DNA of 64,000 nucleotides from a bacterium (GTDB lineage Bacteria > UBA8248), in the NCBI GenBank assembly GCA_965199855.1, contig OZ241326.1, positions 2,528,001 through 2,592,000 on the forward strand, in the 5' to 3' direction. The notes under the pieces were generated by a model. The model made no database searches and had not been told where the DNA came from. It saw only the letters and a list, made by a program, of their open reading frames with translations. Numbering within the stretch: position 1 is the first letter of the stretch; the number at the start of each line of letters is the position of its first letter. The position numbers and the translations under genes are program-made. Below, in pieces: positions 53,225 through 60,947 of this stretch.

Positions 53225-53312
53225 CGATTCCTGCGAATTTCTGCAAATTCAGACAAATTCACGGCCATTTGGCAACCATTTGCAGGCCGTTTCCCGGCCA
53301 TTTGAAGGCCAT
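53225..53312. repeat. Degenerate tandem repeats with 10-11 bp period
   Basis: gcgaatttct|gcaaattcag|acaaattcac|ggccatttggc|aaccatttgca|ggccgtttccc|ggccatttgaa|ggccat. Confidence 0.65.
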
Positions 53313-53386: not shown

Positions 53387-53446
53387 AATATAACCCGATC
53401 CGGCCCGCTCCGGCAGCCGCAAATGCGGGCAGATTCGCGCAAATGC
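53387..53446 (-). promoter_or_regulatory. Inverted copy of the 21-bp motif (19/21 match) with -10-like TATATT 24 nt downstream
   Basis: ccgcaaatgcgggcagattcg at 53417-53437, followed by a third cgcaaatgcg unit. AATATA at 53387-53392. Confidence 0.5.
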
Positions 53447-53768
53447 GCGCGGCCTCACGAAAATCGCTCAGGCGGCGCGATTTTCACGGGAAACATCCGA
53501 CTCCCGGGGCGTGAGGAGGCCGCCGAGATTCCGGCGGAGGGCGGACGAGCCGCGGGAACATCCGGCTTCCGGGGGGAAGAGGCGGCCTCGCCGAGCGGAA
53601 AGAGTTGAAAACGCAAGGGTTTCCCAGCCCGATTCCGTCATGCTCCGCTTCGCGGCCTCTTCCGTTCGCCGGCGACGGGAAGCCGCGCGTCCGGGCCCCA
53701 AAACATGGTTTCAGCCTCCCCGTCCTCGGCCGAATGCGATGTTTTTTCAGAAAATCGGCGTCCACCCG

Positions 53769-53820
53769 CGCATTTGCCCGCATTTGCGGGACGAACAGCC
53801 GCGCCTCGCTTCCATATAGT
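53769..53820 (+). promoter_or_regulatory. 21-bp motif CGCATTTGCCCGCATTTGCGG with -10-like TATAGT 25 nt downstream
   Basis: Exact copy of 60896-60916. Precedes the tail-like operon. Confidence 0.6.
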
Positions 53821-53915
53821 CCCCCGACGCCGCCCGCTTTCGCGCTGAAGCGGCGGCCGGGACGCGACGGGACAAATTCGCCCTCCCGAAACGGAGGCTT
53901 CATCCCGGAGGTGAG

Positions 53916-54995
53916 ATGGGACATCGCTTCATGTATCGAAACTTCATCGACGACGCGGCGGCCATCAGCGCCTCTTCCGCAGAAAAGGGCTTCGTCGGCG
54001 CGGGCGCGCCCCGCGTCGCCAACGGGAGCGGGACGATGATTTTCTCGGGCGCCTACGCCGGAGACGACAGCGAAGTCTATACCGTGGAAATCGACGCCCC
54101 GGGCGACGCGGGCGGCGCCCGCTTCAGGTGGCGAAAAACCTCGACCTCCGGGGACGACTGGGAAGCCTCGAGCGTTCTCACCGCGCTGCGGGACGTCGCC
54201 CTGGATTCGGGCGTGAAGGTGCGCTTCGTCAACGGCGCGGATTCGCCGGCGTTTCCTCTGGGAGATCGCTGGCAGGCCGCGGCGAGCCGCCCGCGCTCGC
54301 CGAAAGGAATTTACGACCTCGACCCCGGCGCCGGGGTGAGGAGCGCCTCGCCGCCCGAGGACCCCTGGTCGCTCGCCGTCGATTTCGGCGCGGCGAAATC
54401 TCCCGACGTCCTCATCGTTCATCGCCACAATTTCTCGTCGGTAGCGAGGCTCAAGATTCAGGCGAACGCCTCGGCGAGCTGGCGCGCGCCCGCGCTGGAG
54501 GAAGCGGTCGCCTGGCGAAGCGGCGCGCTCGTCCACTATCTCGCCGCGAAGCCCCGCTCCCATCGCCATTGGCGTCTTCTCGTGGAAGGCGACGCCGCCA
54601 ACCCGGACGCCTATCTGGAGGCCTCGGAAATCTATCTGGGCGGCTTTTTCGAGCCCGCCGAGCACTTCTGGCTCGAAAACGTGGTGGGGGAGGAGGCCTT
54701 CGAGGAGCCGGGCCGCAAGGGGAGCGGGGCGGGACGCCCGACGCTCCTGAACCGCGGCCGCGCGGCCATCCTCCCCTACCGGCGCGTCTCCGGCCGGCAG
54801 CGCGCCGAGTTTCTCGCCATGTACCGGGCGGTGAAGGACATTGAGGCGGGACGCGCCAAGCCGCTGTTCGCCCATCTGGACGTGGACGACCCCGCCTCGC
54901 TCATGCTCGCCGACCTCGTGGGCGGCTTCCTGCCGCGCCAGGAGGGGCCGGATGATTTCTCCTTCGATCTCGAACTCAGGGAAAGGCTGCCATGA
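53916..54995 (+). CDS. Hypothetical phage tail-tip (distal-tail-like) protein with a beta-sandwich/discoidin-like segment
   Basis: SD GGAGGTG. WSLAVDFG...HRHNFS and RHWRLLVEGDAANPDAYLEASEIYLG recall uncharacterised phage tail proteins. First gene of a coupled operon. Confidence 0.55.
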   Translation: MGHRFMYRNFIDDAAAISASSAEKGFVGAGAPRVANGSGTMIFSGAYAGDDSEVYTVEIDAPGDAGGARFRWRKTSTSGDDWEASSVLTALRDVALDSGVKVRFVNGADSPAFPLGDRWQAAASRPRSPKGIYDLDPGAGVRSASPPEDPWSLAVDFGAAKSPDVLIVHRHNFSSVARLKIQANASASWRAPALEEAVAWRSGALVHYLAAKPRSHRHWRLLVEGDAANPDAYLEASEIYLGGFFEPAEHFWLENVVGEEAFEEPGRKGSGAGRPTLLNRGRAAILPYRRVSGRQRAEFLAMYRAVKDIEAGRAKPLFAHLDVDDPASLMLADLVGGFLPRQEGPDDFSFDLELRERLP

Positions 54996-55521
54996 GAGAG
55001 GCCACGGAGCGGGCCATCGCGGACATCGCCCGGCACGAGGGGAGAAACGCCTTCGTCCTCTACCATCTGTCCACCGGCGGCGGAAAGCGCGTGTTTTGCG
55101 CGAAGCGCCCCCCCGACTCCCTGATCGGACAGGGCGGAGGAGTCCATTTTCTGGAGGGAGCGCGGGTTCTCGACGGCTCCCTTCCTCTCGGCGAGGGAGC
55201 GGAAGTCCTGCTCGGCGTTCACGACTGGGTGGAGGACGGCGGCCGCTTCTCCCTCGGCGCGCTCCGGGGGACTTCCGCCCTCGAAGCCTTTCGGGAAAAG
55301 GAACTCTCCGGCCTCTCGATATCCATCAGCAACGCGCCCGACGCGGACGGACGCGCCCGCATGAGCCGCATCCTCGCCTCGGAGCCGCTCCTGGGCGGGC
55401 GGCTGGACGTCCGCGTCGGGTTCTCGGGCGGAACCATAGCCGACGTTCGCTCGCGAGCTTCGCCGTCCGCCGAATCATCGAACGCGCCGACCGGGTAATC
55501 ATCGAGTGCGAGGGCAGCTAG
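54992..55521 (+). CDS. Hypothetical phage tail-associated protein, probably frameshifted near 55445
   Basis: ATGA overlap with the previous gene. The annotated frame stops at 55498, while the -1 frame gives SLASFAVRRIIERADRVIIECEGS ending in TAG directly before the next ATG at 55522. Confidence 0.55.
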
Positions 55522-56733
55522 ATGGCCGACCTGACGAAGGATCGCCTCTCGGATTCCTTTCAAATGCGGCGCGCCTCGACATACGACGCGCCCGAATTCG
55601 AGGATCAGAGCCTCCCCGTCATCTACGGCGATCTGACCATCCCGCCCTGCGAGCGCGCGGGCGTCTATGCGCTCCCGAAAATCGACGAGAGGGGCGCGGG
55701 AGCCTACTGCGTCGCCGCGCACGAAATAGAAGGGGAAGTCAGCCTCTTCGACGACGACGGTCGCATCGGGACGGGCGATTACGCTCTGGCGCTCTCCCAG
55801 GACTACCAGGGTAAGGGCGTCATCGCGGTCGCCGCCTTCTCCGCGGAACCCAGAGGCCGCGTAACCGCGGTATGCAGAGGCAGGAAGGACGCGGCGGGGA
55901 GGCTGATCGAAAACCCCGCCGACGTCGTTCGGGACCTGATGACGAACGTCTGGGGGTTCGGCGAGCGGGACATCGACATGCCGGCCCTCTCGCGCGCGGC
56001 GGCGCGCGCGGACGCGCTCGGCTACCGGGCGGGCGGGATGCTCCTCGACGACCACGCGCCCGCCGACGTTCTCACTGCGCTTCTGGGCGATTTTCTGGGC
56101 CGCTACGAAATCGACCCCTTCGGCCGCCTGGCGATCCGCATCGCCGGCGCGGAGCCGTCCTCCAGGCTCCCCGCAAAGGTTCTCCCCCGCTTCGGCGAGG
56201 CGCGCGTCGAGGCGGAAGTCTCGCGCGACTCCATCATCAATCAGGCGCCCGCGCTCTACGCGAGAGACTACCTCCACGGGCGCTATCTCAAGCACGACGA
56301 CGGAGAGGCGGCCAAAAGCGTCTCCTCCCAGAGGCTCTACGGCGTCAGGAGGCCTCCGCAAGGCCCGCTCAGGCTCGAATGGGTTCGGCGCGAGAGCGTG
56401 GCCGCCGCAATCCAGGCGCGCATCGTGGAGCGCTGCCGCAGACCCGCCCGGATGATCACCTTCGAGAACGCCACCCTGCGGACGCTCGAAGTCGAACCCG
56501 ACGACTACGTGGCCTTCAGCGTTCCCTGGATGCGATCCGAGAATCTCGAACCCCTCCTCAACCGGATCGGAGAGGTGATCGAGGTGAACTACGACCTGGA
56601 CGAGCAGGCCATGGAGCTCAAAATCCGGGACGCCGAATTCTTCCTGACGACCGCCTCTCCCCTGGGAGGCGTCAAAACCCTGGAAGGCGGCTGGCTGCTG
56701 GGAGCCGAGCGCGACGCCGCCGCCTACGCATAA
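55522..56733 (+). CDS. Putative phage tail hub/Tal-like protein
   Basis: LPVIYGD and LIENPADVVRDLM motifs typical of tail-tip proteins, and a C-terminal LEVEPDDYV...IEVNYDL beta segment. Confidence 0.6.
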   Translation: MADLTKDRLSDSFQMRRASTYDAPEFEDQSLPVIYGDLTIPPCERAGVYALPKIDERGAGAYCVAAHEIEGEVSLFDDDGRIGTGDYALALSQDYQGKGVIAVAAFSAEPRGRVTAVCRGRKDAAGRLIENPADVVRDLMTNVWGFGERDIDMPALSRAAARADALGYRAGGMLLDDHAPADVLTALLGDFLGRYEIDPFGRLAIRIAGAEPSSRLPAKVLPRFGEARVEAEVSRDSIINQAPALYARDYLHGRYLKHDDGEAAKSVSSQRLYGVRRPPQGPLRLEWVRRESVAAAIQARIVERCRRPARMITFENATLRTLEVEPDDYVAFSVPWMRSENLEPLLNRIGEVIEVNYDLDEQAMELKIRDAEFFLTTASPLGGVKTLEGGWLLGAERDAAAYA

Positions 56734-56746
56734 AGGAGAGAGGACG

Positions 56747-57688
56747 ATGCCCATCGGCGCTGATCTGTCCGCCCGCTACACCGAGGAAGCCGTCGGCGGC
56801 GACCACCCGACGAAAGCCCGCGTCATCGACCGTCTGGCGCTCGCCGCCCTGTTCCCGGACGGGAAAATCAGGGCCGGCAGGCTGCCCATCGAATGCGCGG
56901 GCAGGCTCGACTACGTGAACGCCACCACCCTGGCGTTCAAGCCGGCGCTCAATTCCGTCCATCATCCCGCCATTCCGAATCCCGTGGCGGGCCGCCACGC
57001 GCCCTTCATCGACGGGAGCTCGGGCGAGGTCTATTACGAGGACCTGCCCTGGGCGGGAATCACGGCGACGAACGCGGGCCTTGCGGCGGGCCGCGTCTAT
57101 GCGGTTTTCGTCCGGGACGACAAGGGCGCGCTCAAGCTCGAATTCGACGGCTCGGGGACGTGGACGCTCGATTCCGCCACGGGACTCGCGCACAAGACGG
57201 GCGACGCGAGCCGCACCCTCGTCGGCATCGCGAGGACGAACGACTCCTCGCAGTTCGTTCTCGCCGACGACGTGTTCGTCAGAAGCTTCTGGAACCGGGC
57301 GGAATACGCCGCCGAATCCAGGGGCGTCCTCGCCGTCACCACCTCGACGACCTGGGCCTCGATCGCCACGCACGCGGTTCTGCTGTGGCCGGGCTATGAC
57401 GTCGTGCACCAGGCGGCGGGCGGACAGGGCTGGGTGAATTCGGCGATCGCGCCGGGGCGGCTGGGGCTGGACATGGGCCTCGACCTCTACAACAAAACGA
57501 CGCAGGCCTACCCGGAAGTCGAAGTCATCGGCTCGGCGAGCGGCGAGAAGGACAATTTCGGGGTGGTGAGAACGCGAACCTACAAGGGAAGGCTCGCCCG
57601 GTCGTACTCCGCGCTCGTCTTTCGCGCCGCGCGCCCGGCCACGCTGAGCGTAGGCGACTATTCCTTTCAAAGCGTCTTGTGGATTTAG
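56747..57688 (+). CDS. Putative tail fibre/receptor-binding protein
   Basis: SD AAGGAG. Thr/Ser/Gly/Ala-rich beta-type sequence positioned after the hub-like gene. Confidence 0.5.
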   Translation: MPIGADLSARYTEEAVGGDHPTKARVIDRLALAALFPDGKIRAGRLPIECAGRLDYVNATTLAFKPALNSVHHPAIPNPVAGRHAPFIDGSSGEVYYEDLPWAGITATNAGLAAGRVYAVFVRDDKGALKLEFDGSGTWTLDSATGLAHKTGDASRTLVGIARTNDSSQFVLADDVFVRSFWNRAEYAAESRGVLAVTTSTTWASIATHAVLLWPGYDVVHQAAGGQGWVNSAIAPGRLGLDMGLDLYNKTTQAYPEVEVIGSASGEKDNFGVVRTRTYKGRLARSYSALVFRAARPATLSVGDYSFQSVLWI

Positions 57689-57697
57689 GAGGGCGAC

Positions 57698-58393
57698 ATG
57701 GAAATCGAGGTGACCAAAGGCGTCGGCGCGCATTTTCAGGGAGAACTGGAGGCGGCCGGACTCGCGCATCTCTGCCTGGGCTGCGCGCACAGGCGCAAGG
57801 CGAACAGGATTCCCGACCCCGACTGGCGGCCCGCCCCCGGCGAGGCGGAATCCGCCCGTCCCGAAACCGAGGGGCCCGGGGCGGATTCGTGGATTCTCCA
57901 TCTCGCCGACGAGAGTACAGAAGCGGAGCGCGAAGCCGTTCTCGCCGTTCACGAGGCGCACGAGCCCGACGGCCTCGCGCGAATCCACAGGGATGAGGCG
58001 AAGAAGAAGCTCGGCCTGCTGCTCAACGCCGCGAAGGAGCGCGCCGCGGACGCGACGCCCGGCGCGCTGGGCGGCAAGCTGGCCGAGTATGAGGAAAAAG
58101 CCAGGCTCATCGAAGCCTGGGTGAGGGATGCGGATCCGGCGAAGCTCGAAAAGCCCGCCTTCGCGCTCGTCAAGAACAGAAAAGACGCCCACCCGGCGCG
58201 CTACGCGACGGGTCAGAGCGTGGTGGACGAATGGAAGGCCATGAGAGCGGCGCTGCTCGGCAAATTCGCCTCGCTCGTGAAAATCTACGACGAGGGCGTG
58301 CGCGACGCCCGGGACGCGGGCGCGACCCCCACCCGCGCCGCCCTCGACGCCAGGATCGAGGAGGCCGCCGCCTCTTTCGACGCCGCGCGCTGA
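57698..58393 (+). CDS. Hypothetical protein, possible tail fibre assembly chaperone
   Basis: SD AGGAGG. Helical C-terminal half (EYEEKARLIEAW...VVDEWKA), directly after the fibre-like gene. Confidence 0.45.
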   Translation: MEIEVTKGVGAHFQGELEAAGLAHLCLGCAHRRKANRIPDPDWRPAPGEAESARPETEGPGADSWILHLADESTEAEREAVLAVHEAHEPDGLARIHRDEAKKKLGLLLNAAKERAADATPGALGGKLAEYEEKARLIEAWVRDADPAKLEKPAFALVKNRKDAHPARYATGQSVVDEWKAMRAALLGKFASLVKIYDEGVRDARDAGATPTRAALDARIEEAAASFDAAR

Positions 58394-58761
58394 TGTCCTC
58401 GGAATCGAACGGAAAAGGGCTTCAGATTTTTCTGGCCATCCTGAGCATCGCGGGCCTCGGGGTCGCCGCCTACACCCCGCTCTACAATCAAATCGTGAAC
58501 GTGGAGGCGCGCCTGGCGGCCCACATGCGCGAGCGCGGCCACCCCTGGCTGCTGGAGAAAAACGCGGGCGCGCGGGTGCGCTTCCAGGAGGTGGAAACCC
58601 GGCTGCGGGAAGCGAAGACGATAGCCGACCTCAGATTCCACGAACTCAAGGAAGCGTCGATGAAGAAAACGCGCGCGGACGCGCGGGCGTTCGAGCGGAT
58701 GCTCCGCCGTCTGCGCGAGGTCGAACTCGCGCTCGCCAGACTGAGCGAGCGCCTCGAATAA
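58393..58761 (+). CDS. Single-TM coiled-coil membrane protein (holin/antiholin-like position)
   Basis: TGATG coupling. Hydrophobic LQIFLAILSIAGLGVAAY segment followed by a coiled coil. Confidence 0.6.
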   Translation: MSSESNGKGLQIFLAILSIAGLGVAAYTPLYNQIVNVEARLAAHMRERGHPWLLEKNAGARVRFQEVETRLREAKTIADLRFHELKEASMKKTRADARAFERMLRRLREVELALARLSERLE

Positions 58762-58772
58762 GGAGAGCGTCC

Positions 58773-58895
58773 ATGATTCCCCACCTTCTCGCCGCGCTGT
58801 TCGCGGTCGCCGTCCCCGTTTGCGTCATCGCGGCGGTCGATCCGCGCCTCATCACGAATCATCTGTGGCATTTCATCAACCCCTGGGCGGACTAG
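58773..58895 (+). CDS. 40-aa hydrophobic small protein
   Basis: Not in the ORF track. SD AAGGAG then ATG; translates as MIPHLLAALFAVAVPVCVIAAVDPRLITNHLWHFINPWAD. Confidence 0.55.
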   Translation: MIPHLLAALFAVAVPVCVIAAVDPRLITNHLWHFINPWAD

Positions 58896-59050
58896 GTGGT
58901 ACCAACTCCAGGGGTGCGCAGGCTGGCGAGGACGCCCGCGCCGAAGCCGGGCCGGCGCTTCATGCCGGGGGATGCCTCTCCTTGCTTCACGCGGGAATAT
59001 GATGCAAGTTTCCCGCGAGCGAATCATTCCCCGCCTGCCCGGAGACGAGA

Positions 59051-59605
59051 ATGCCTTTCGCGTCTCGAGGCCGCGCCTACAGAGTCGTCTTCAGCCTCGC
59101 CCTGCCGTGCTTCCTGATTGCAGCCTGCGCGCCTCTGGAGTTGGGACCACGGGGAACAGACACGCGGACGTACGGAAGGTGCGGCGTCATCACCTTGATA
59201 GATCACCTGAAGGGCGAAACGAACCATACGCTCACCTGCCTCGGCTTCGCCGATGGCTCTCCGGGATCAGAACGCCCGGCAGCGGGACTGAATTGCCTCC
59301 CCGATAATTCGCTCGTTCTCGTTCTATATCCAGGCAAGGCGCAGTCGCATTCCGGGCAGCTCATCAACGTTCGCTATCGCTTCAATCAACGCGCGACTGT
59401 GGAAAAAGCCTGGTTTTGGGGGCAAGAAAAACAAATGGCGGGTACCCTATCCGACGTTCTCATAAAAGATTTTCTACGCGGCATGGCGGGGGGGGAACGC
59501 CTCACCTTTGAAGTCGGAGACAGATGGGCGATCATTTCCTTCACCGGAGACACCACAGGCGCCATCAACGATTTCCGGAGCCGCTGCGCCGCGCTGAAAA
59601 AATAA
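59051..59605 (+). CDS. Putative lipoprotein, copy 1
   Basis: Basic N-region, hydrophobic stretch, lipobox IAAC, and four further Cys in the mature part. Confidence 0.75.
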   Translation: MPFASRGRAYRVVFSLALPCFLIAACAPLELGPRGTDTRTYGRCGVITLIDHLKGETNHTLTCLGFADGSPGSERPAAGLNCLPDNSLVLVLYPGKAQSHSGQLINVRYRFNQRATVEKAWFWGQEKQMAGTLSDVLIKDFLRGMAGGERLTFEVGDRWAIISFTGDTTGAINDFRSRCAALKK

Positions 59606-59659
59606 ACGCGCCCAACCGACCGGGGCGAGAGCGGACGAACGCCGCTCAAGGAGACGAGA

Positions 59660-60214
59660 ATGAATCCGGCGTCCCGGAGCCGCATCCACAGAGTCGTCTT
59701 CAGCCTCGCCCTGCCGTGCTTCCTGATTGTAGCCTGCGCGCCTCTGGAGTTGGGACCACGGGGAACAGACACGCGGACGTACGGAAGGTGCGGCGTCATC
59801 ACGTTGGAAGGCGGATCGCCCGATAAGACGAGACATTCCCTCACATGCCTCGGCGTCGCCGATGAATCTCCGGGAGACGACAGACCGGCCGTAATAATCG
59901 GCTGCTATACCGAGACCCCAGCCATCGGCATGTTGCGCTCAGGCAAGGCGAAGTTTCATTCCGGGTCGCTCATCGAGGTACGCTATCGCTTCAATCAACG
60001 TCCACTCATAGAACAAATTTGGGTTTGGGTACAGAAAGAGCAAATGGCGGGGACTCCCTCTCGGACCGTCATAGATGACTTGTTGCGCGGCATAGCGGCG
60101 CGGGAGCGCCTTATTTTTGAAATTGGGGAAGATTGGGCTATAATTTCCTTTACTGGAGACACCACAGGCGCCATCAACGACTTCCGGAGCCGTTGCGCCG
60201 CTCTGAAAAAATAA
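59660..60214 (+). CDS. Putative lipoprotein, copy 2 (divergent core)
   Basis: Lipobox IVAC. Same ends as copies 1 and 3 but a substituted core. Confidence 0.75.
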   Translation: MNPASRSRIHRVVFSLALPCFLIVACAPLELGPRGTDTRTYGRCGVITLEGGSPDKTRHSLTCLGVADESPGDDRPAVIIGCYTETPAIGMLRSGKAKFHSGSLIEVRYRFNQRPLIEQIWVWVQKEQMAGTPSRTVIDDLLRGIAARERLIFEIGEDWAIISFTGDTTGAINDFRSRCAALKK

Positions 60215-60271
60215 AGCCGCGCCCAACCGACCGGGGCGAGAGCGGACGAACGCCGCTCAAGGGAGACGAGA

Positions 60272-60828
60272 ATGAACCCGGCGTCCCGGAGCCGCATCCA
60301 CAGAGGCGTCTTCAGCCTCGCCCTGCCGTGCTTCCTGATTACAGCCTGCGCGCCTCTGGAGTTGGGACCACGGGGAACAGACACGCGGACGTACGGAAGG
60401 TGCGGCGTCATCACCTTGATAGATCACCTGAAGGGCGAAACGAGCCATACGCTCACCTGCCTCGGCTTCGCCGATGGCTCTCCGGGATCAGAACGCCCGG
60501 CAGCGGGACTGAATTGCCTCCCCGATGCTTCGCTCGGACTTACTCTATATCCAGGCAAGGCGCAGTCGCATTCCGGGCAGCTCATCAACGTTCGCTATCG
60601 CTTCAATCAACGCGCGACTGTGGAAAAAGCCTGGTTTTGGGTCCCAGAGAAGCAAATGGCGGGCACTCTGTCCGACGTTCTCATAAAAGATTTTCTACGC
60701 GGCATGGCGGCGCGGGAGCGCCTCACCTTCGAGGCCGGGGAGACAGATGGGCGACCATTCCCTTCACCGGGGACACCACAGGCGCCATCAACGACTTCCG
60801 GAGCCGCTGCGCCGCGCTGAAAAAATAA
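60272..60828 (+). pseudogene. Putative lipoprotein, copy 3, frameshifted
   Basis: Two extra G at 60737-60740 relative to copy 1 (GCCGGGGAGAC versus GTCGGAGAC) move the conserved C-terminus FTGDTTGAINDFRSRCAALKK out of frame. Confidence 0.75.
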
Positions 60829-60895
60829 AGCCGCGCCCAACCGACCGGAGCGTTTCCTCCCTCCAAAGCCCCTGAACGCGGAAAATACAAGACGC

Positions 60896-60947
60896 CGCAT
60901 TTGCCCGCATTTGCGGTTTTTTCTCCTCCTAGCGGCTCCAATACACT
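60896..60947 (+). promoter_or_regulatory. 21-bp motif with -10-like TACACT 25 nt downstream
   Basis: Exact copy of 53769-53789 with identical spacing to the hexamer. Precedes the tape-measure-like gene. Confidence 0.6.

Follow-up and report, generated by a model that had tools for sequence, protein, structure and literature searches.

Gene transfer agents (GTAs) are defined as domesticated phages (PMC8987985). In the alphaproteobacterial GTAs RcGTA and CcGTA, the structural and packaging genes of phage origin are spread over several loci, some with no more than one or two genes, and there is a dedicated activator (PMC11841831, PMC11150451). Splitting over distant loci makes these genes hard to find, and the choice of the DNA that is packaged is presented as an open question (PMC11841831). 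Here we analyse a 21-bp motif that stands at a fixed distance from a -10 hexamer in front of two phage-like gene units in a 64,000-nucleotide stretch of a bacterial chromosome (the window; contig OZ241326.1, positions 2,528,001 to 2,592,000) and that recurs in related genomes. On balance we favour a reading in which a GTA-like system, domesticated from a phage of siphophage type and split over the chromosome, has its late genes in one regulon, accompanied by non-coding promoter-plus-array elements (class II elements) that would act as loading sites.

Several described systems resemble parts of this one. The CII protein of phage lambda reads a TTGC-N6-TTGC repeat straddling the -35, and F-type tailocins are non-contractile tails encoded with lysis genes, usually in one cluster without terminase genes. 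The Mor and C promoters of phage Mu are described as pairing a consensus -10 with a -35 that is not optimal; the activator site lies directly upstream of that -35, and C is reported to bind as a tetramer over nearly three helical turns (bioRxiv 10.1101/2025.05.02.651988). The CcGTA promoter is described as needing its -35, with GafY far upstream and integration host factor (IHF) in between (PMC11150451), and the small terminases of known GTAs are reported to lack a DNA-binding domain (PMC11841831). In the packaging (pac) region of SPP1/SF6, promoters are described as lying together with direct repeats and DNA that is intrinsically bent, all within one site that the helix-turn-helix (HTH) ring of the small terminase recognises; in SPP1 pac is a single site overlapping the terminase gene (PMC4737164).

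Three copies of the motif in the window

The window contains two exact copies of the 21-mer on the forward strand and an inverted third copy (53417-53437) that matches it at 19 of 21 positions, each followed by a -10-like hexamer:

53769-53789, + strand: site 1, activator-type motif of two 10-bp units (motif match)
53815-53820, + strand: -10-like hexamer TATAGT, 25 nt past site 1 and 95 nt 5' of the first ATG (sequence)
60896-60916, + strand: site 2, motif identical to site 1 (motif match)
60942-60947, + strand: -10-like hexamer TACACT, 25 nt past site 2 and 84 nt 5' of the ATG (sequence)
53417-53446, - strand: site 3, leftward motif of three units (extra exact octamer at 53439-53446)
53387-53392, - strand: -10-like hexamer TATATT, 24 nt past site 3 (sequence)

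These copies, their distances to the hexamers and the absence of a good -35 had all been reported in an initial annotation and were reproduced here; at 16-18 nt spacing the best -35 match is 3/6 at each of the three sites. Three matches with up to three mismatches are present in the 64 kb, for a shuffle mean of 0.01, and three were reached in 0 of 100 shuffles; a chance origin of the window copies is excluded. The exact octamer GCATTTGC occurs six times in the window, every time inside sites 1-3, and each octamer is an interrupted palindrome (GCA-TT-TGC).

The poor -35, the -10 and the position of the motif just upstream of where a -35 would lie are as in the Mor and C promoters, from which the site differs in being a tandem 10-bp repeat with partial dyad symmetry (the 21-mer is mainly a direct repeat, with 15 of 21 positions self-complementary). 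Like the CII site it contains TTGC-N6-TTGC, although the CII repeat lies about 14 nt closer to the -10. In contrast to the CcGTA promoter, the sites have no good -35 and the motif is close to where a -35 would lie. A GGAGG precedes the first ATG behind site 1. A sigma-70 consensus scan of the window picked up none of the three sites, as expected since they have no -35, and a weight-matrix scan of the window gave no extra site beyond the overlapping third unit of site 3. By eye, a short and imperfect direct repeat is visible in the interval that separates site 3 from the back-to-back site 1 (about 53488-53509 and 53554-53576).

A fixed -10 spacing across a lineage

A genome collection was scanned once with a 20-letter pattern that covers all three window copies and leaves the -10 out. 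The scan matched 77 loci: 46 in 15 genomes of one Nitrospinota-labelled lineage, seven in one alphaproteobacterial metagenome-assembled genome (MAG; VGDZ) and 24 as singletons in other genomes. None of these overlaps the window, whose genome thus seems to be missing from the collection; the relatives were seen as 20-kb pieces, with neighbouring genes called by a simple open reading frame (ORF) scorer. Four of the 15 lineage genomes are labelled Nitrospinota or Nitrospinaceae, ten more were assigned through a neighbour gene 84-99% identical to another member's, and OZ253442 was placed by its array alone; two genomes (three loci) were joined to the lineage after their sequences had been inspected.

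Within the 60 nt past the motif, 20 of the 31 lineage sites outside genome OZ251456 have the hexamer TANNNT, always at an offset of 24 or 25 nt. The corresponding counts are 7/15 for OZ251456, 0/7 for VGDZ and 0/24 for the unrelated matches. When orthologous and near-identical copies were collapsed into 21 groups, 12 were positive (shuffle mean 0.27, maximum 3 in 2000) versus 0/1113 at other offsets. All 27 TANNNT sites have a -35 match of only 1-3/6, and several of the TANNNT-negative sites show CAGAAT or GAGAAT at a similar position. Ten positions are common to more than one genome (neighbour 84-99% identical), at several of which the spacer has diverged to 6-10/24 identity with its length constant and the -10 offset kept. 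Scanning the 46 loci with a weight matrix, trained partly on the very copies that it recovered but with the -10 excluded from training, gave 34 further degenerate copies, all intergenic; nine of them have TANNNT at 24/25, and NANNNT is present at 24-26 in 22. Orientation showed no bias relative to GC skew (19 vs 21 of 40 loci), and a search of phage records with the motif returned only six chance-level matches (E about 6).

Because TANNNT stands at this offset in 12 of the 21 collapsed groups, at none of the other offsets and in none of the unrelated matches, the motif is very likely part of an activator promoter rather than a recombination repeat. Motif and -10 together very probably form an activator-dependent promoter with fixed spacing, as had been proposed initially. 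A lineage-specific activator would bind the 10-bp units and recruit the host RNA polymerase, which would use the -10 only with the activator present. Assuming a 17-bp spacer, the motif would end 2 nt upstream of the would-be -35 and stand in for it (25 nt = 2 + 6 + 17).

Copies in front of phage late genes

Four copies were seen that drive genes; each one stands before late genes of phage type, and none of them carries an array: sites 1 and 2 of the window, and two copies at L024, a locus in one relative. The functions of the four modules are tail tip, tape measure, lysis and packaging. Six genes (g1-g6) lie behind site 1, the first three of which are listed here together with the tape-measure-like gene that follows site 2:

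53916-54995, + strand: g1, 359 aa, CBM32/discoidin-like domain (structure model pLDDT 86.9; CBM32 Z 14.7, rmsd 2.3 over 128 aa)
54992-55498, + strand: g2, 168 aa, tail hub, N-terminal portion (some homologs carry it fused to g3)
55522-56733, + strand: g3, 403 aa, siphophage (non-contractile) tail-tip hub (structure model pLDDT 91)
61032-62855, + strand: tape-measure-like protein, 607 aa, with its own promoter copy (phrog_1535, E 2.1e-12, and other tape-measure PHROGs)

The modelled g3 folds as a siphophage tail-tip hub. Its Foldseek matches include DT57C (E 8e-12) and T5 (E 2e-11), and its VIA comparisons give Z 18.1 with Chi (rmsd 4.1, 301 aa), 17.4 with JBD30 and 16.6 with RcGTA (6tba); two homologs, P0123 and P0137, align with both g2 and g3. 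From its position g1 is probably the distal tail protein. It also matches phrog_8610 (E 1.2e-8), and no distal-tail fold was listed for it in a structure comparison filled by the CBM domain, in which residues 246-359 were barely tested. There are 39 homologs of g1 (31 of 348-369 aa, four with an insert and four partial) and 47 of the tape measure besides itself; homologs of the window phage genes occur in MAGs of relatives, some of which bear the name Nitrospinae or Nitrospinota at their source, and in one MAG those of g1 and the tape measure are seven locus-tag steps apart (OXL41_15545, OXL41_15510). Searches of phage records with g1 and g3 (tblastn) gave no match, and sequence searches of solved structures with the hub and small-terminase alignments gave nothing useful.

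Some distant homologs of g1 (P0025, P0027, P0028 and P0034) have an extra domain inside, which in P0025 and P0028 is LamG, and in P0122 a LamG domain is appended to g3. Such domains may be a variable, sugar-binding decoration of the tail tip.

At L024 the motif and a TATATT stand 5' of a 110-aa ORF, followed by a small terminase resembling Mu gp27 (PF11985; phrog_426, E 2e-8; best phage BalMu-1, 27%). A gp27-like gene preceded by an ORF of about 110 aa is also the order in BalMu-1 (pairwise E only 0.052), and no Atlas family was found for the ORF at L024. Unlike in BalMu-1, no large terminase follows the small one at L024, and the first 26.9 kb of BalMu-1 hold no copy of the motif. L024 carries a second, variant motif 1.8 kb upstream of the first; its hexamer, TAAACT, likewise comes after 25 nt, and behind it lie an ORF for a small membrane protein, a DUF1508 ORF and the genes of a lysozyme (PF00959, E 1.5e-12) and a GTA_holin_3TM protein (PF11351, E 1.3e-11). 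The small terminase has 33 homologs, 49-97% identical and most of them 83-95%. All 25 that were aligned match PF11985, and the N-terminal region of about 55 aa is retained; HTH_32 gives a weak match in 3/25 (best E 4.8e-4). Residues 44-54, presumed to be the recognition helix, are the most variable (entropy 0.92 vs 0.24-0.37 in 17 close homologs, the stretch having been picked after the alignment was viewed).

The window itself is a core chromosomal region (bamA, clpC, lysS, prfB, uvrBC, ftsY, smc, rnc, fab genes, yceD, ppx), the phage-like units being flanked by a gamma-carbonic-anhydrase-like gene and cinA. A family scan of 41 chosen window ORFs found no integrase or replication family. The system differs from Mu in having its modules scattered in host core regions and a tail hub of siphophage type, and no Mor/C gene was found among the scanned window genes and neighbours. 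It is like RcGTA and CcGTA in its multi-locus structural, packaging and lysis genes, here spread over the window and L024 rather than one genome, in a presumed dedicated activator, in the siphophage hub fold and in the PF11351 holin. It differs from known GTAs in that the small terminase keeps its N-terminal region, in the dispersed promoter-plus-array elements and in belonging to a different phylum, and the phage ancestor is probably not that of the alphaproteobacterial GTAs.

Given these genes, we consider a domesticated phage late regulon likely; it would work like a phage late or a GTA regulon, with GTA membership a candidate assignment. The activator would co-ordinate the scattered modules, namely the two tail modules of the window (tip and tape measure) and the lysozyme-holin and small-terminase modules of L024, and these would build a non-contractile particle released by lysis. 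Since a conserved small terminase is kept in the regulon, the particle would package DNA, and we incline, if only slightly, to a DNA-packaging, GTA-like particle as the product.

Promoter-plus-array elements

The initial annotation took the motif to define a regulon. This is supported for late phage genes and extends past the window to the lysis and small-terminase genes of L024, but the annotation overlooked that most copies, the window's third included, drive no gene. Downstream of site 3 there is a phased repeat array and no phage gene, and site 3 is the window's member of the non-coding class II elements:

about 53227-53306, - strand: helically phased A/T-tract array behind site 3 (A-tract autocorrelation and sequence)

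The A-tract autocorrelation of this array is 6 and 7 at lags 10 and 11, and 0-2 at lags 8, 9 and 12-19. Most other lineage sites are likewise followed by an AT-rich array, with A-tract peaks at lags 10, 20 and 30; the array unit varies by genome group and the promoter motif is invariant. At least eight elements are closed, 222-300 bp away, by an inverted motif with its own hexamer, which was not found for most other sites, and in four genomes a distance of 127-129 nt between facing promoters is conserved. The neighbours are mostly metabolic or transport genes (106 proteins), and a convergent gene faces 30 of 45 sites. A search of phage and plasmid records with a class II element gave no match.

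We read the class II elements as putative sites for loading a protein, turned on by the activator of the phage genes, with packaging starts as the likeliest use. In favour of this use, the SPP1/SF6 pac site joins promoters, repeats and bent DNA, and the small terminase keeps its N-terminal region with the presumed recognition helix as its most variable part (a post hoc argument). The likeness to SPP1 pac lies in the promoter, the repeats and the phased DNA (by periodicity alone); the arrays differ in being many, chromosomal and away from phage genes, and they are candidates for binding and cleavage. That the arrays are packaging starts is the weakest step of the reading and is put forward tentatively, as doubtful.

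Other observations concern individual elements. Nested forward promoters, with two or three copies 85-155 bp apart, are frequent (L049, L058, L061, L062, L074, L047). Seven near-identical OZ251456 copies (L003, L013, L016, L020, L022, L031, L035) lie directly behind paralogous autotransporter-like genes, with REP-like palindromes upstream; the label is inferred, and one such gene gave no Pfam match. Another OZ251456 copy (L067, 3080-4845) is about 5 kb from parAB and so probably near the replication origin. Directly after the element at L030 (7161-9513 and 2146-4983) there are two tandem tyrosine integrases and a relaxase-like ORF, labelled by reading its sequence, and the array there may be an integration hotspot. 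The alphaproteobacterial MAG has seven dispersed elements of two or three repeat units (L018, L032, L036, L038, L042, L059, L070), most of which have an upstream core in common and lack a -10; some lie beside toxin-antitoxin or other cargo-like genes, and the elements resemble integrase att ends.

Other genes of the window

The remaining genes of the two units and the segment between them are as follows:

56747-57688, + strand: g4, 313 aa, without family (no Pfam or PHROG match)
57698-58393, + strand: g5, 231 aa, without family (no Pfam or PHROG match)
58393-58761, + strand: g6, 122 aa, N-terminal hydrophobic segment (weak PHROG matches only, E about 1e-3)
59051-60828, + strand: three tandem lipoprotein-like genes between the two units, period 609-612 bp (sequence)

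By its position only, g4 may be tail fibre-like. The lipoprotein-like genes share 75-93% DNA identity, and the third copy shifts frame near its 3' end; they are possibly exclusion or immunity genes. Directly 5' of the first one, a 30-nt stretch (58896-58925) shows 90% complementarity to the part of each of the three genes that encodes the lipobox. It may serve as an antisense or hairpin control, or be left over from an inverted copy.

Alternative explanations

The same promoters could drive a head-less particle, that is, a split non-contractile (F-type-like) tailocin released by holin and lysozyme, with the gp27-like protein repurposed and the orphan elements as decoys or relics. A non-contractile tail and lysis genes under one activator are indeed F-type-like, and what was seen comprises tail, tape-measure and lysis genes and one small terminase, with no head gene. 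The small terminase of L024 standing without a large one, the sugar-binding domain of g1 and the LamG domains added in some homologs point the same way. F-type tailocins, however, are usually without DNA-packaging genes, and here a small-terminase-like gene is found under the same promoter (at L024 only), full length, conserved in most homologs and with its own promoter copy. Furthermore, PF11351, the family of the holin, takes its name from gene-transfer release, and head genes were looked for in 20-kb genome pieces and may lie elsewhere. We regard this explanation as improbable.

A second explanation of low probability is a dispersed non-autonomous mobile repeat, resembling miniature inverted-repeat transposable elements (MITEs) or att ends, with the motif at its ends, a promoter captured by or co-ancestral with a phage remnant, and most copies inert. 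The inverted motifs at the far ends of the closed elements, the frequent convergent genes, the integrase pair behind the L030 array and the seven alphaproteobacterial copies without -10 would all suit such a repeat. In OZ251456, 13 copies are 86-98% identical, with strong shared homology beginning at the motif, and all 15 copies contain the IHF consensus. As a general feature, an IHF site was rejected, since that consensus is present in 0 of the 31 other lineage sites. Against mobility, motif and -10 offset are kept at orthologous positions despite spacer divergence, the gene-driving copies have no array and are all 5' of phage genes, and no phage or plasmid record was matched.

Class II elements might instead drive a family of structured small RNAs, again controlled by that one activator, which is very improbable. 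The promoter architecture without an ORF behind it and the conserved distance between facing promoters could be so explained, but folding the consensus gives a weak structure (-5.22 kcal/mol, covariation term +1.12, 1/15 pairs compensated), single-sequence z-scores range from +0.83 to -1.80 in four of four elements, with -0.53 for window site 3, and the conserved part is a periodic, DNA-type repeat. A structured RNA is thus unsupported by fold and z-scores. Searches for tRNA, tmRNA and Rfam families found none in the window or in 53 site regions, and Rfam gave no match in three loci.

That the two identical copies are att-like repeats bounding an excisable 7.1-kb segment, as the initial annotation had offered, or neutral leftovers of a decaying prophage, is scarcely credible: it could account for two exact direct copies in one window, the lower GC at 58-62 kb and the frameshifted lipoprotein copy, but the tape measure gene is outside the 53769-60916 segment, no integrase or recombinase was identified in or beside it, the motif recurs with its -10 spacing at dozens of unrelated sites, and the genes either side of site 2 are conserved full length and lie seven locus-tag steps apart in one MAG.

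Discussion

Several observations weigh against a late regulon with class II loading sites. The scan of the genome collection bore out a constant -10 spacing in the lineage, but only one of the 46 exact-pattern lineage sites, L024, has a same-strand gene within 200 nt, and the lysis and terminase links both come from this one relative. Homologs of the window tail or tape-measure genes are present in 0 of the 77 loci, so that the motif at the relatives' tail promoters would be variant or absent; variant copies are common, 34 of them having been met in the flanks of the lineage loci. Neither in the window nor among 300 of the 413 neighbour representatives, scanned against PHROG at E <= 1e-12, was a capsid, portal, large terminase, tail tube or activator found; the neighbours gave no head gene and one lytic transglycosylase. 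In OZ251456 8/15 copies are without TANNNT and the 13 near-identical ones are as expected of a recently spread repeat, and the same repeat is found without -10 in the unrelated alphaproteobacterial MAG.

The late regulon with class II loading sites remains the reading that we favour. Its fullest form would be a GTA-like system derived from a Mu-like siphophage, in which the small terminase still recognises DNA and copies of the site where packaging starts have spread across the chromosome, so that activator-switched elements would set which parts of the genome are packaged; we consider this form unlikely as a whole. What is new here are the dispersed non-coding promoter-plus-array elements. 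In literature searches, which left out most subscription papers, we found no GTA-like system described in this phylum and no relevant paper describing such a system.

With GTA genes so hard to gather, a sharp promoter signature offers a means of finding every part of such a system, the activator included. Should the packaging-start prediction fail, what would be left is a phage regulon that is split and conserved, together with a dispersed element not described before. If it is true, coverage steps are predicted at known coordinates in the DNA of virus-like particles, and the system would be GTA-like with start sites that are both defined and regulated. The findings point to a virus system that has been tamed and that may be packaging DNA of its own host cell.

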